NCBI GenBank assembly: GCA_046597055.1
Contig: JBKJLC010000235.1
Location: 1-34,734, forward strand
Length of the DNA stretch: 34,734 bases
Direction of reading: 5' to 3'
Source of the DNA: Kofleriaceae bacterium
GTDB lineage: Bacteria > Myxococcota_A > Polyangia > Haliangiales > Haliangiaceae
The notes beneath the pieces are model-generated. The model saw only the letters and a list, made by a program, of their open reading frames with translations, ran no database searches and was not told where the DNA came from. Positions 3,443-11,188 of this stretch are shown here, one piece after another; positions within the stretch are counted from its first letter, which is position 1, and each line of letters opens with the position of its first letter. A program made the position numbers and the translations under genes.

Positions 3443-4468
3443 GTGAGCGACAACGACTTTGCTGGGTGGCGGGCGCGGTGTGCTCCGGAGATCCTCGGGG
3501 AATCCCCCGCGCTGCGGCGGGCGCTCGACGTGGTGCGCCGCGTCGCGGTGTGTGACTCCAGCGTGCTGCTCACCGGCGAGACCGGCAGCGGCAAGGAGCT
3601 GTTCGCGCGGGCGCTCCACCAGGCCTCGGGTCGCGACGGCAAGCCGTTCGTCGCGGTCAACTGCGCGGCGATCCCCGAGTCGTTGATCGAGAGCGAGCTG
3701 TTCGGTCACCTGCGCGGGTCGTTCACCGGCGCCTCGGCGCCGCGGGCCGGCCGCTTCGTCGCCGCTGGCGGCGGCACCATCTTCCTCGACGAGATCGGCG
3801 ACCTGCCGCTGTCCGCCCAGGCCAAGCTCCTGCGCGTCCTCGAGCAGCGCACGGTGTGCCCGGTCGGGGCCGACACCGAGCTCGCGGTCGACGTCCGCGT
3901 GGTGGCCGCGACCCACCACGACCTCGAGGAGATGGTCAGCCGCGGCCAGTTCCGCGCCGATCTCTACTTCCGCCTGTCGGTGGTCCCGCTCGCGCTGCCC
4001 AGCCTGCGCGAACGCGGCGCCGACATCGTCCTCCTCGCCGAGGCGGCGATCCGCCGGGTCGCCGCCCGCGGCGCCCGCATGGTCACCCTGGGCGCCTCGG
4101 CCCGGGCCGCCCTGCTCGACCACGCCTGGCCCGGCAACGTCCGAGAGCTCAACCATGTCGTCGAGCGCGCGGTCGTCCTCGCCGACGGTCCCTCGCTCGA
4201 CGCCGCCGACCTCGGCCTGGCGCGATCGCGCGGCCCGATGCTCGCGCCCGCGCACGCCGGGGCCGGCCGCGGCGCCGACCTCGCCGCGCCGGTGCCGGTG
4301 TCCGAGCCCGACGAGGGCGGCCTCGACCTGCGCACCGCGCTCGAGGGGCTCGAGCGCAAGATGATCCGCGAGGCGCTCGAGCGCGCCCAGGGCAATCGCA
4401 CCGAGGCCGCCGCCCTGCTCGGCCTCAACCGCACCACGCTGGTCGAGAAGCTCCGCAAGTACGCCTGA
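3443..4468 (+). CDS. Sigma54 enhancer-binding protein (AAA+ and Fis HTH) with no N-terminal regulatory domain; FleQ/FlrA-like C-terminus
   Basis: [44 protein letters not shown]-terminus GLDLRTALEGLE...RTTLVEKLRKY. Confidence 0.88.
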   Translation: MSDNDFAGWRARCAPEILGESPALRRALDVVRRVAVCDSSVLLTGETGSGKELFARALHQASGRDGKPFVAVNCAAIPESLIESELFGHLRGSFTGASAPRAGRFVAAGGGTIFLDEIGDLPLSAQAKLLRVLEQRTVCPVGADTELAVDVRVVAATHHDLEEMVSRGQFRADLYFRLSVVPLALPSLRERGADIVLLAEAAIRRVAARGARMVTLGASARAALLDHAWPGNVRELNHVVERAVVLADGPSLDAADLGLARSRGPMLAPAHAGAGRGADLAAPVPVSEPDEGGLDLRTALEGLERKMIREALERAQGNRTEAAALLGLNRTTLVEKLRKYA

Positions 4469-4490
4469 GCCGGAGCCGAGCCCGGCGGCG

Positions 4491-5933
4491 CTACCGGAAC
4501 CGCGCCGAGTCGATGTGGTGGCGCTGCAGCAGGCGGCGGAAGTTGGTGCGGTCGATGCCGGCCAGCCGGGCCGCGGCCGAGATGCTGCCCTTGGCCTGCT
4601 CGAGGATCTTCAGCAGGTACGAGCGCTCGAAGTCGAGCGCGGCCCGCTTCTTGGCCTCGGTCAGCGGCACGCTGTCGTCGCCGGGCTCGGGGTCGAGCCG
4701 GGTCACCAGCCCCGAGCCGTTGGCGAACCGGTCGGCGTCGAACGCGGTCGCCGCCAGCAGCGTCGGCGGCAGCGCGCTCGGCTCGATCACGTCGCCGCTG
4801 GTCATCGCCAGCGCGTGGAGCAGCGCGTTCTCGAGCTCGCGCACGTTGCCGGGCCAGCCGTAGCCGCCGAGCACCTCGAGCGTGTCGGCGTGCAGCGTCA
4901 TCTTGCCGGCGTCGTGCCGGCGCAGCAGCGCCGCGATCAGCTTGGGCAGGTCCTCCTTGCGCTCGCGCAGGGGCGGCACCGCCAGGCTGACCACGTTGAG
5001 GCGGAAGTACAGATCGGCGCGGAAGCGGCCGTCCTGGACCGCGCGCGCCAGGTCGACGTTGGTGGCGGCCACCACCCGCACGTCGACCGCGCGGACCTTG
5101 TCGTCACCGACCGCGCGCACCTCGCCCTCCTGCAGCGCGCGCAGCAGGCGGACCTGGACCGCGAGCGGCATGTCGCCGATCTCGTCCAGGAACAAGGTGC
5201 CACCGTGGGCCTGGACGAACACGCCGGGCCGGGCCGCGACCGCGCCGGTGAACGCGCCGCGCACGTGGCCGAACAGCTCGCTATCGATCAGGCCCTCGGG
5301 GATGCCGCCGCAGTTGAGCGCGACGAACGCCTTGTCGCGGCGCGGTGACAGCGCGTGCAGCGTGTGCGCGACCAGCTCCTTGCCGGTGCCGCTCTCGCCG
5401 GTGATCAGCACGCTGGCGGTCGAGCGCGCGATCTGGGTGACCATCTTGCGCAGCCGCGCTATCGGCGGGCTGGCTCCGACCAGGACGTCGCGCGAGGTGC
5501 TGTCCTCGTCGGACCCGGCCTGGGCCTGGCGGATGAACGCGGCGTGGCGCGCGGCGGCGCCGATCACCTCGTCGAGGGTCTCGGTCTGCGACTTCACCAC
5601 GTAGTGGAACGCGCCGCCGCGCAGCGCCGCGGTGGCGGTGCCCGCGCTGTCGTCGCCGGTCAACATCACGATCGCGGTGGGGGCGCCCTGCGCGCGCAGC
5701 GCGGCCAGCACGTCGAGGCCGCTCATGTCAGCGAGATCGACGTCGAGCAAGATCACGTCGATCGCCTCGGTCCCGACCCGCTGGTGGATCAGCCGGTCGA
5801 TCTCGGCGCGAGTCCCGACGTGCTCGACCGCGATGCCCTTGGTCGCCATCAGGCGGATCACGAACCGCGCGACCGTGGGATCGTCATCGACGAGCACGAC
5901 CCGCGGACCTGACGCGACCGGTTCTTCCACCAC
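4491..5933 (-). CDS. NtrC-family sigma54 response regulator (REC-AAA+-HTH)
   Basis: [33 protein letters not shown]-terminal HTH; start placed at GTG 5933. Confidence 0.92.
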
Positions 5934-5982
5934 CTGGGGATAGCTTAGCGAAATTCGGCGCCGCGCGCCGCCGCTGGCCAGC

Positions 5983-9313: not shown

Positions 9314-9475
9314 ATGATGATGCGGATCGACCCGAGCACCCTGGCTACCTTCACCGACACGCCCTCGACCGAACGCATGGGTGCGCGCGCCGCGCGGATC
9401 CGCCAGACGCTCCTGTCCGGGCTGTACACGATCGACCTGGACCGGCTGGCCGGTCGGCTCGTCGGTAATCGCTAG
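9314..9475 (+). CDS. flgM: FlgM-like anti-sigma28 factor (53 aa, not in the ORF track)
   Basis: MMMRIDPSTLATFTDTPSTERMGARAARIRQTLLSGLYTIDLDRLAGRLVGNR; C-terminus fits the FlgM pattern hydrophobic-R/K-xx-hydrophobic-xxG-x-Y-x-I/V-D-xxx-LA; GGAG RBS; adjacent to fliA. Start could be 9314, 9317 or 9320. Confidence 0.75.
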   Translation: MMMRIDPSTLATFTDTPSTERMGARAARIRQTLLSGLYTIDLDRLAGRLVGNR

Positions 9476-9572
9476 CCGACAGCCGCCGCAACCCGGCCAC
9501 GAGACCCAGCCGCGCGGGCGGCCGACGTCTCGGAACCGTCGTGGTGCGCAGCCAATGCGCAGGTCGCGCAGG

Positions 9573-10310
9573 TCAGGCGGCGGCGGCGCGCACCGAGGTC
9601 AGCTCTGGCGTGCGCTCGATCTCGGCCCGGAGGCGAACGATCGCGCGGCCATGGAGCTGACAGACGCGCGAGATGGTCACGCCCAGGATCTGGGCGATCT
9701 CCACGTAGGTGAGCTCGTCGCCGTAATAGAGCGACAGCAGCAGCACGTCGCGCTCGCCGAGCCGGCCCAGCGCGCGGCGCACGCGGCCGAGGAGCTGGCT
9801 GCGCTCGGCCTGCTGGGCCGGCGACGAGGTCTCGCGGTCGGCGGGAAGGTCGATGTCGTCGAGCGCGCCCACCGTGACGTGGATTAGCTGCTCGAGGTCG
9901 TTGCGATAGGTCTCGACCGAGACGCCGAGCTTGGCGGCGACCGCCTCGTCGGCGGGCGGGCCGCTGCTGGTCTGCTCGAGCTCGCGGATGGTGGCGCCAA
10001 CCTTGCGCGCCATCTGGCGAACCCGGCGCGGCATGATGTCGCCACGACGCAGCTCGTCGAGGATCGCGCCGCGGATGCGTTTCTCGGCGAAGACCAGGAA
10101 CGGCTCCTGGCGGGTCTCGTCGTAGCGCGCGGCGGCCTCGGCCAGGCCGAGCAGGCCGGCGGAGACCAGGTCATCGGTGCAGATCCATGCCGGGCAGCGC
10201 CGCGCCATCCGGCGGGCGATGCGCTTGGCGACCTCGACATGCTCGGCGATCAGACGGTCACGCGTGGGTGAACGTGGGGTGGTGGCCGAGCGCGAGGTGG
10301 CGTGGGTCAT
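9573..10310 (-). CDS. fliA: FliA/WhiG family RNA polymerase sigma factor (sigma28)
   Basis: DDLVSAGLLGL, RIRGAILDELR..D..PR.VR, LYY.DELT..EIA.ILGVTISRVCQLH; overlaps flhG. Confidence 0.93.
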   Translation of the reverse strand: MTHATSRSATTPRSPTRDRLIAEHVEVAKRIARRMARRCPAWICTDDLVSAGLLGLAEAAARYDETRQEPFLVFAEKRIRGAILDELRRGDIMPRRVRQMARKVGATIRELEQTSSGPPADEAVAAKLGVSVETYRNDLEQLIHVTVGALDDIDLPADRETSSPAQQAERSQLLGRVRRALGRLGERDVLLLSLYYGDELTYVEIAQILGVTISRVCQLHGRAIVRLRAEIERTPELTSVRAAAA

Positions 10311-11188
10311 GGGGCGTCTCCTTGAGCGGTGAGGTGACCGCGGCGGCGCCGCGCGCCTCCCGCTCGCTCATCGGCAAGTGCATCCAGCGCGCCAGCCACG
10401 CGGGCGAACGCACGCGCCGCGGGAGCGTCGGGGTGTAGGCGGACCAGCGGAACCCCGCGCGCCGCAGCCTCGGAGACCGCGGGGTCGGTGGGAATGGCCG
10501 GGAGCGCGGTCAGGCGCAGCTCGAGGAACTGCTCGCTGAGCGCGGTCACGCGCGCGACGATGTCGTCGGCCTGCGCGGCGCTGGTGACCCGGTTGGGCAT
10601 GATGTACGCGTGGCGTCGGCCATGCTCGCGGACGAGCACCTTCAAGCACGCGTAGGCGGCGGCCATCGACACCGGCTCGGGATCGACGACGATCAGGGTG
10701 TCGTCGGCGGCCGCTGCGAACGCGGCCTGGCTGGCGCCGATGCCGGCGGCGACGTCGAGCACGACGGTATCGAAGCGGTGCGAGAGCGAGCGAATCAGCT
10801 CGAGCGCCCGGGCCCGGGCCGCGCCGCCCATGGTCGCCAGCGTGTAGCTGCCGTTGAGCGCAGGCAGGAGCTGCAGGCCGTGGGCGGCGACCAGCACGTC
10901 CTCGATCGGCGTGCCGGCGAGCGCGTCGAGCAGGCTGTGGGTCGGCGCGACGCCGAGCAGGAGGTTGAGGTCGGCCAGGCCGAAGTCGGCGTCGACCATC
11001 AGCGTGCGCGCGCCGCCGGCCGCGTAGGTCGCCGCCAGGTTGACCGCGACCGTGCTCTTGCCGACCCCGCCCTTGCCGCCGGTCACGGCGATCCGCCGCT
11101 CGCGTTGCCGGACGACCGGAGGCTCGCCCGAGATGACGCGAAGCGAGGCACGCAGGTCGGTCACGGCCGGCAAAGCTGCAACCGTCAC
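10307..11188 (-). CDS. flhG: FlhG/FleN (MinD-family) ATPase
   Basis: GGKGGVGKS, DADFGLA, LDVAAGI, PEP.S..AY..LK; directly upstream of fliA. Confidence 0.85.
   Translation of the reverse strand: MTVAALPAVTDLRASLRVISGEPPVVRQRERRIAVTGGKGGVGKSTVAVNLAATYAAGGARTLMVDADFGLADLNLLLGVAPTHSLLDALAGTPIEDVLVAAHGLQLLPALNGSYTLATMGGAARARALELIRSLSHRFDTVVLDVAAGIGASQAAFAAAADDTLIVVDPEPVSMAAAYACLKVLVREHGRRHAYIMPNRVTSAAQADDIVARVTALSEQFLELRLTALPAIPTDPAVSEAAARGVPLVRLHPDAPAARAFARVAGALDALADERAGGARRRRGHLTAQGDAP

Follow-up and report, generated by a model that had tools for sequence, protein, structure and literature searches.

A second set of flagellar control genes in a Kofleriaceae genome, probably a stripped copy of its flagellar cluster

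What do flagellar regulators control when they stand together without a flagellar structural gene? The question is raised by a stretch of 34,734 nucleotides from a Kofleriaceae bacterium of soil (GCA_046597055.1, contig JBKJLC010000235.1), the whole of which we call the window. Most descriptions of myxobacteria treat them as lacking flagella, Anaeromyxobacter being the known exception (PMC2330069, accessible text). ORF and profile scans found all of the regulators and kinases named by the initial annotation within about 8 kb, correctly named and with intact frames. As it had also stated, genes for flhA, flhF, flagellin, rod, hook, and che were not found among the scanned ORFs, and the window gave no match to the genome's own flagellar proteins of these kinds. 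The boundary of the block was moved leftward to include the receiver, OmpA-domain, and Stig1-like genes at 599–3215: orthologs of the receiver, REC1, adjoin motA in several relatives, and the OmpA-domain and Stig1-like genes accompany the block in four relatives by synteny (G009, G021, G030, and G034). The features are as follows.

533–565: weak sigma28-type site before REC1 (8.3 bits, rank 354)
599..991, + strand: REC1, single-domain receiver (Pfam Response_reg)
988..2094, + strand: OmpA-domain protein (Pfam OmpA; synteny)
2091..3215, + strand: Stig1-like cysteine-rich protein (Pfam Stig1; synteny)
3443..4468, + strand: sigma54 activator, 341 aa, C-terminal end RTTLVEKLRKYA; 75% identity to the copy on contig C123
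4491..5897, − strand: NtrC-type response regulator, REC-AAA-HTH (Pfam); start codon approximate (~5900)
5983..7185, − strand: receiver-histidine kinase (Pfam); receiver Asp and H, N, and G boxes intact in alignment
7296..7328, + strand: sigma28 promoter predicted for the kinase-receiver operon (rank 12 of 6651; 15.9 bits)
7353..8663, + strand: Ser/Thr kinase (Pfam Pkinase) with PilB/GspE N2-like N-terminus
8695..9264, + strand: REC2, receiver with C-terminal extension (Pfam)
9272..9304, + strand: predicted sigma28 promoter of mini-flgM (12.4 bits, rank 44)
9314..9475, + strand: mini-FlgM, 53 aa (Pfam FlgM 15.5 bits, below the 25-bit cut-off)
9573..10310, − strand: FliA (sigma28), second copy (TIGR02479 and PRK06986 cut-offs exceeded)
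10307..11164, − strand: FlhG/FleN-type ATPase, second copy (MinD-type families; 68% identity to the FlhG of contig C73)
11177..11258, − strand: predicted activator box (11242–11258) and sigma54 promoter (11177–11193) of flhG-fliA (33.0 bits)
32327–33775: FliI/SctN-type ATPase

A genome-wide profile search revealed that three other contigs, C123, C203, and C73, together carry a nearly complete flagellar set, with flhA-flhF-flhG-fliA in the usual order together with flgM, flagellin, and motAB; the ends of C123 and C203 share 117 bases inside fliI. The finds of flagellin, FlhA, rod/hook proteins, FliF, MotA, and others rule out a non-flagellated genome. Furthermore, with promoter models trained on relatives, the best sigma28-type promoters belong to the fliC, motA, and flgM genes of this set (ranks 2–4 of 6651). 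The proposal that the cascade had been rewired in a non-flagellated cell thus fails here, on the very finding that the initial annotation had named as its refutation. The type of pattern it suggested, TCAA-N15-G(C/T)CGA, does not detect the fliC and flgM promoters here, where the −10 element is GGCGA.

The activator, FlhG, FliA, mini-FlgM, and one receiver of the window are paralogs of flagellar-cluster genes, with 53–75% identity: FliA is 69% identical to the C73 FliA, FlhG corresponds to the C73 gene between flhF and fliA, and REC2 has a shortened counterpart on C123 (62% identity). Four paralog pairs have similar synonymous distances, 0.51–0.60, and dN/dS values of 0.26–0.58, which are overstated because third positions of about 95% GC compress dS. 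The losses in the two copies are complementary. The flagellar cluster retains an activator, the shortened receiver, and a mini-FlgM, with no kinase block, and the Ser/Thr kinase, receiver-kinase, NtrC regulator, and REC1 are found only in the window; the best matches elsewhere in the genome are 41% for the NtrC regulator and 29% for the receiver-kinase. The gene order of the window is that of the flagellar cluster minus the structural genes. The kinases, which the initial annotation had described as interleaved, belong to the family's normal flagellar cluster: the block lies next to fliL in 10 of 16 same-genus genomes, and in a wider scan, 35 of 42 full-length loci have a flagellar gene in their flanks. 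We consider it probable that the locus is a duplicate of the control section of the flagellar cluster, that its structural genes were lost, and that it still works within the flagellar hierarchy of a cell with a full flagellar gene set.

The AAA+ domain of the window activator begins at residue 17, preceded by about 16 residues, and Pfam gave no match there to the N-terminal REC-like domain of FleQ, which FleQ requires (PMC10723142, accessible text). In a tree that contained no FleQ sequence, the activator falls in a clade of 30 rows (SH 100), where the window copy pairs with the C123 copy (SH 95), and for 9 of the 30 rows (9 genomes), the activator gene immediately precedes flgB. The sigma54-contact loop reads GSFTGA in these two copies and GAFTGA in 27 of the 30 rows, and the C-terminal helix-turn-helix aligns with that of FleQ. 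The best single full-length stretch is to FleQ (8P53), although ZraR scores higher overall (270.6 vs 262.3 bits). Three of the five c-di-GMP residues of FleQ (listed in PMC8335546) are changed: R185 and R334 are retained, while R144, N186, and E330 read P, A, and A, the R144 equivalent sitting one residue beyond the printed FleQ alignment. A common predicted box precedes flgB, fliM, and flhF, and activator orthologs are encoded upstream of flgB. These motifs and this synteny would suit the family's master activator of early flagellar sigma54 promoters, of which the window activator is likely a second copy. The upstream GTC...GAC palindrome resembles the box proposed for Pseudomonas FleQ, GTCaNTAAAtTGAC (PMC6120874, accessible text), a box whose generality the same paper doubts; the palindrome spans 15 bases, compared with 14 for FleQ.

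The window FliA exceeds both family cut-offs (TIGR02479, 195.7 vs 189.6; PRK06986, 208.2 vs 201). It groups with the orphan FliA of a relative, G009, rather than with the flagellar FliA of its own genome (91/94, on a long branch), in a tree restricted to selected genomes, from which seven rows that were orphans or long branches had been excluded. Second FliA lineages have several separate origins by another FliA tree, which excluded G043_L100 as a long branch. The window FlhG matches MinD-type families and none of the FlhG-specific models. Its start codon is likely at 11164, since the sigma54 motif spans 11177–11193 and the N-terminus from 11164 matches flagellar FlhG. Mini-FlgM begins with the same 8 residues as flagellar FlgM and retains the C-terminal helices, but about 37 residues of the linker are missing. 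A model of its complex with FliA scored 0.66, compared with 0.01 for the best control (51 of 78 solved pairs, but only 2 of 108 mismatched ones, attained the mark), with contact agreement of at least 79%, partner pLDDT of at least 77, and predicted contacts at FliA residues 170–227. As FliA and FlgM are a textbook pair, this model shows likeness, and it may reflect a solved complex.

With a promoter model likewise trained on relatives, the site before the window flhG ranks third in the genome, behind flhF (34.6 bits) and fliM (33.8), with the next at 27.0, and it is likely a copy of the flhF promoter. Before the kinase operon, sigma28 sites of at least 10 bits face the Ser/Thr kinase in 11 of 44 related spacers and point the opposite way in 2. 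The mini-flgM site resembles the C73 flgM promoter in sequence, but its score falls within background (25 sense vs 29 antisense sites of at least 13 bits). The activator box and sigma54 site found before the receiver-kinase in 13 of 44 related spacers are absent in the window, so this operon may have left the hierarchy in this genome. Both promoter types are lost in loci with short spacers.

The mechanism that we propose follows the FleQ-FleN-FliA-FlgM hierarchy of Pseudomonas (FlrA in Vibrio), with its sigma54 activator, MinD-type FlhG, FliA, and FlgM. After duplication of the cluster and loss of the structural genes from the window copy, the activator, lacking a sensory domain, would bind GTCA-N7-CGAC boxes and turn on the sigma54 promoters of flgB, fliM, flhF, and the window flhG-fliA. 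FlhG would probably damp the activator, as FleN does FleQ. FliA would then transcribe fliC, motA, flgM, the window kinase-receiver operon, and mini-flgM, as well as a handful of dispersed genes of receiver, HD-domain, and PilZ-like types, and mini-FlgM is predicted to limit this transcription by binding region 4 of FliA. Given the position of the block between fliL and motAB, the kinases may tune motor use or a switch between swimming and surface life. Of the two targets first suggested for the cascade, an unlinked flagellum fits best. The genome does have scattered flhA-like, fliP-like, and FliI/SctN-like genes, one of them in the window, reminiscent of the needle-less T3SS of myxobacteria (PMC3459982, accessible text); a search upstream of these genes detected neither an activator box nor a good sigma28 site, so a link to the block lacks promoter support.

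The kinase and phosphorelay block built into the Kofleriaceae cluster sets it apart from the FleQ hierarchy. The N-terminus of the Ser/Thr kinase matched T2SSE with E = 0.0055, below the cut-off, and a profile of 21 such N-termini matches PilB structures (E = 3e-6 to 1e-5). The resemblance to PilB/GspE is confined to the pre-ATPase N2 stretch; a protein kinase follows, with no AAA+ ATPase domain. Catalytic motifs of the kinase are conserved in 58 orthologs, and the motifs of the NtrC regulator over 48. Anaeromyxobacter dehalogenans likewise has a signaling block between motAB and the fli genes, but its block consists of chemotaxis genes (PMC2330069), whereas that of Kofleriaceae consists of a Ser/Thr kinase, receiver-kinase, NtrC regulator, and receivers. 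We do not claim that the block replaces chemotaxis: CheA is encoded at two unlinked loci in G000, and 5–11 CheW matches were obtained in each of five relatives. The flagellar contigs of G003, G015, G016, and G017 gave no CheW match, and neither did the flagellar region of G000; in G108, one lies about 60 kb away.

Rod/hook genes are present in 48 of 91 genomes of the family. Among the other 43, a FliA-type sigma factor is found in 30, the receiver-kinase in 28, and the activator in 9, and flagellin is absent in all 38 tested. Retention of the cascade without a flagellum, which does not apply to the present genome, is thus seen in its relatives, and the survival of these control genes hints at a second role. 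Block retention in many genomes without flagellar genes is not explained by a purely flagellar role. In the window, the copy might accordingly be a second sigma28 circuit beside the flagellar one, with a non-flagellar output such as surface sensing or envelope genes like the OmpA/Stig1-like pair, in a form that persists after flagellar loss. We regard this as rather unlikely. It is favored by the counts above, by the repeated origin of second FliA lineages, by G009 (89% complete), which has the gene order of the window with no rod/hook, flagellin, or other flagellar genes detected, by G001, where an exact sigma28-type site precedes the kinase and no rod/hook or flagellin was found, and by the precedent of WhiG2 in Actinomycetota (PMC12871210, accessible text). 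However, the genomes are all metagenome bins, related ones do not count as independent cases, the short-spacer loci have neither promoter type, and the window flhG-fliA keeps a flagellar-type promoter. The exact sigma28 pattern is enriched in 5 flagellated genomes (20 matches vs 5 in the control), but in 13 FliA-positive genomes without rod/hook genes, there is no excess (23 vs 20, a weak test), and 7 FliA-negative ones gave 8 vs 8. This count does not support the idea that genomes lacking rod/hook genes have kept a sigma28 regulon.

It is quite improbable that the duplicated flhG, fliA, mini-flgM, and activator are redundant leftovers heading to loss, with only the single-copy kinase block of importance. 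The reduction of FlgM to 53 residues, the shortened C123 receiver, the dN/dS values, and the decaying flagellar genes of G026 point that way. Yet every frame is intact at synonymous distances above 0.5, the dN/dS values are inflated as noted, the promoters are retained, and a mini-FlgM recurs beside a second fliA in G001, G003, G004, and G012. That the flagellar contigs are binning contaminants is hardly credible, despite a contamination rating of 7.55% for the bin and the closest FliA relative lying in G009, given that read depths of the window and C73 match (about 21/13/9 vs 20/14/9 over three runs of one study, two possibly the assembly's source), tetranucleotide profiles are ordinary, the two activators are sisters, both with GSFTGA, the gene losses are complementary, and C123 and C73 also bear non-flagellar genes without a second copy.

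What is new here is the presence of rod/hook genes in about half of the family, the kinase and phosphorelay block within its flagellar cluster, and the retention of FliA in most of the genomes without rod/hook genes. No description of the block, or of flagella in Kofleriaceae, was found in the open-access literature, and the accessible parts of PMC11821767 and 10.1101/2024.12.19.629468 contain nothing on the latter. The Kofleriaceae cluster combines an activator that has no sensory domain with a kinase block in the place where Anaeromyxobacter has chemotaxis genes. The WhiG1/WhiG2 pair of Actinomycetota is comparable in that a sigma28 paralog has been uncoupled from the flagellar cluster and persists in lineages that lack flagella (PMC12871210), but the Kofleriaceae split occurred several times and recently, and the anti-sigma factor is a shortened FlgM rather than RsiG. 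A tentative extension is that Kofleriaceae repeatedly duplicate the flagellar cluster and strip it to a sigma28-kinase module that runs a non-flagellar program and outlives the flagellum; this might be a WhiG-like exaptation of which several stages are visible, the present genome holding both the parent and the stripped copy. Two relatives, G101 and G103, have export-gate genes through flhA, followed by flhG-fliA-flgM and then the block, and in G066 and L190, only flhG-fliA-flgM is left. This graded series, from the intact cluster through export gate with regulators to regulators alone, makes the role of flagellar regulators after loss of the flagellum testable by comparison.

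All eight genes named in the initial annotation were recovered with intact frames among the window ORFs and in family searches, and the names it gave to the parts are good. Gene calls come from a purpose-built codon model, so start codons are approximate. The window FliA (9573..10310) scores above two curated family cut-offs, while the FlgM-like ORF (mini-FlgM, 9314..9475), of 53 aa, is below the Pfam cut-off. The same annotation had proposed a flagellar-type cascade without flagellar structural genes, possibly rewired for a non-flagellar output. The cascade is not orphaned in the source genome, an 8.4 Mb bin in 303 contigs with a rated completeness of 94% and contamination of 7.55%, of which the window is contig C156 in full. 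In family searches this genome gave matches to flagellin and FlhA and five to rod/hook families, and it is predicted to be that of a flagellated bacterium, with the flagellar set on three other contigs:

C123: flgB, flgC, fliE, fliF, fliG, start of fliI, motA, motB, pseudaminic-acid genes, fliL
C203: remainder of fliI, flgD, flgE
C73: fliM through flhA, flhF, flhG, fliA, flgF–flgI, flgM, flgK, flgL, flagellin

C123 and C203 share a 117-base overlap within fliI. FliP, FlhA, FlhF, FliA, FlgF, FlgG, FlgA, FlgI, FlgK, FlgL, FliF, FliE, FlgC, and MotA are above NCBIfam cut-offs, and FliM, FliN, FliQ, FliR, FlhB, FlgH, FlgM, FlgD, FliG, FlgB, MotB, and FliL are family matches below them. Zero NCBIfam matches were obtained for the genes of these contigs that we take, by position, to be fliO, fliH, fliJ, fliK, flgN, and fliD, and the slot likewise assigned to flgJ matched only M23 peptidase models. 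Within the flagellar cluster (L013 8124–13242 and L012 1–1865) are genes of the pseudaminic-acid pathway together with a third MinD/FlhG-like gene, all conserved genus-wide.

Read depth, compared on long contig pieces, is about 21, 13, and 9 for the window and about 20, 14, and 9 for C73 in three runs, all from one study and two of them possibly the source of the assembly. Tetranucleotide profiles are ordinary. The single-copy mfd, two SurA-type isomerases, and PilZ gene at 19829–25996 tie the contig to the core genome. In run X4, a related strain, a few percent divergent, has pieces of the window and of the flagellar cluster (L011).

The block in the window is probably a second copy of the flagellar control genes, stripped down and now with the genome's sole kinase module. 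The sigma54 activator (3443..4468), the receiver REC2 (8695..9264), and mini-FlgM are 75%, 62%, and 53% identical to three adjacent C123 genes preceding fliL, and the window FliA and FlhG (10307..11164) are 69% and 68% identical to those of C73. Four paralog pairs have synonymous distances of 0.51–0.60 and non-synonymous distances of 0.13–0.29. The two activators share GSFTGA and are sisters in a quick tree (SH 95). No close second copy was found in the genome for the Ser/Thr kinase, receiver-kinase, NtrC regulator, REC1 (599..991), OmpA-domain, or Stig1-like genes. A kinase paralog on another contig (L156 3909–5723, G000:C240) is 42% identical and has an extra N-terminal receiver domain. A typical cluster without its structural genes would read flhG, fliA, flgM, REC2, kinase, receiver-kinase, NtrC, activator, Stig1, OmpA, and REC1, which is the gene order of the window except that flgM is inverted. 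The stripped copy would be a new form of a known flagellar regulatory hierarchy.

FleQ is the top single full-length match of the activator, although the total score is higher for ZraR. Only about 16 residues precede the AAA+ domain of the activator. FleQ domains, c-di-GMP residues, and a proposed box are covered in PMC10723142, PMC8335546, and PMC6120874. Because the activator lacks the FleQ N-terminal domain and three of the five c-di-GMP residues, it is at most FleQ-like in its working and is not classed as FleQ. The Ser/Thr kinase retains its catalytic motifs, and its N-terminal domain matches the PilB pre-ATPase domain; the receiver-kinase retains its Asp, His, N, and G boxes. A model of the FliA and mini-FlgM complex scores 0.66, against 0.01 for the best control, with contacts on region 4, contact agreement of at least 79%, and partner pLDDT of at least 77. 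Among solved pairs 51 of 78 attain this mark, and among mismatched pairs 2 of 108; FliA/FlgM is a textbook pair.

Two promoter models were trained on relatives, one for the activator box with sigma54 (8 flgB and fliM regions, five relatives) and one for sigma28 (13 fliC and flgM regions, six relatives); neither is fully blind, because upstream regions of the source genome were seen before the anchor motifs were chosen. The top three box plus sigma54 sites genome-wide precede flhF (34.6), fliM (33.8), and the window flhG (33.0), with the fourth at 27.0, and nine sites reach at least 24, compared with 0, 1, and 1 in three column-shuffled controls. The genome's own flgB site has longer spacing and was detected by pattern alone. 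In the sigma28 ranking of 6651 genes, fliC is 2nd, motA 3rd, flgM 4th, the window kinase 12th, and mini-flgM 44th. Sense sites are enriched over antisense at 16 bits (10 vs 3) but not at 13 bits (25 vs 29). In 44 kinase/receiver-kinase spacers, sigma28-type sites point toward the kinase in 11 and the opposite way in 2, and box plus sigma54 sites point toward the receiver-kinase in 13 and toward the kinase in none. The window spacer has the sigma28-type site, and the box plus sigma54 site toward the receiver-kinase is absent from it. Further high sigma28-type sites lie upstream of receiver-HD, receiver-HDOD-like, and PilZ-like genes, the latter two labels being our own reading. The receiver-HD-domain gene (L154 6861–7997, G000:C117) has the top such site in the genome, outranking fliC.

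The kinase block is part of the flagellar cluster of the family Kofleriaceae. It adjoins fliL in 10 of 16 same-genus genomes (G003, G004, G006, G007, G008, G010, G011, G014, G015, and G016); it is on a 5 kb contig in one, two are without block, FliA, and rod/hook genes, and in three (G001, G009, and G012) the block is present and rod/hook genes and flagellin were not found. G003, G004, and G014 have two block copies, the second with an additional fliA. A broader scan yielded 435 confirmed related stretches, the best 80 of which gave 79 loci, partly overlapping the genomes already counted; a flagellar gene flanks 35 of the 42 loci with at least 20 kb. The activators form a single clade of 30 rows (SH 100), 9 of them directly upstream of flgB. 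Neither the block nor Kofleriaceae flagella were found described in the mainly open-access literature searched. In Anaeromyxobacter, according to PMC2330069, chemotaxis genes of the flagellar cluster sit between motAB and the fli genes.

The more interesting part is that sigma28 and the kinase module have repeatedly outlasted flagellar genes in relatives. The family set comprises 91 genomes, each at least 90% complete; these are metagenome bins, in which a gene scored as absent is one that was not found, and related genomes do not count as independent. Rod/hook matches occur in 48 and none in 43, and flagellin was found in 0 of the 38 tested among the latter. These 43 retain a FliA-type match in 30 (8/16 and 22/27), the receiver-kinase in 28 (7/16 and 21/27), and the activator in 9 (4/16 at 1e-100, 5/27 at 1e-95); excluding the unpublished G077 and G078, the counts are 28, 26, and 9 of 41. 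Some of these genomes are contiguous (G021 and G101, 20 contigs each; G113, 9; G062, 5). FliA trees contain several separate second-FliA lineages, some common to flagellated and non-flagellated genomes. The window FliA groups with the orphan FliA of G009 (91/94, long branch), and not within the genus's other clade of second FliA copies (99/99). PMC12871210 describes WhiG2, a clade of sigma28 that is uncoupled from flagella.

The exact sigma28 pattern has 20 matches vs 5 in the control in five flagellated genomes, and 23 vs 20 in 13 FliA-positive genomes without rod/hook matches. The latter result, a weak test, counts against a rewired regulon; promoter specificity may have drifted in these genomes.

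Intermediate stripped clusters occur in G101, G103, G066, G113, L170, L190, and L234. Those of G101 (C7 87000–107000) and G103 (C21 103000–122000; together L237–L240) retain fliN, fliP, fliQ, fliR, flhB, flhA, flhG, fliA, and flgM, with fliM also in G101. Rod/hook genes and flagellin were not found in either genome, and these clusters would encode a filament-less flagellar export gate. In L170 (2252–4700) and L234 (2086–3800), flhG is followed by a tandem array of two or three copies of fliA. Fragmentary matches to fliA, flhG, flhF, flhA, flgF, and flgG in L140 (G026:C10 170001–190000) reflect either decay or assembly errors.

Adjoining the window flhG is an FHA-domain sigma54 activator (11283–12689, minus strand), one among many in the genome, which showed no association with the block in the relatives' loci. 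At the window end (32327–34605, minus strand), a FliI/SctN-type ATPase has about 73 additional N-terminal residues and is preceded by a 277-aa gene matching no known family. The Myxo T3SS is treated in PMC3459982. Seen alongside an flhA-like orphan on C157 and the fliP-like export-gate cluster of C199, the ATPase looks like part of a scattered needle-less T3SS.
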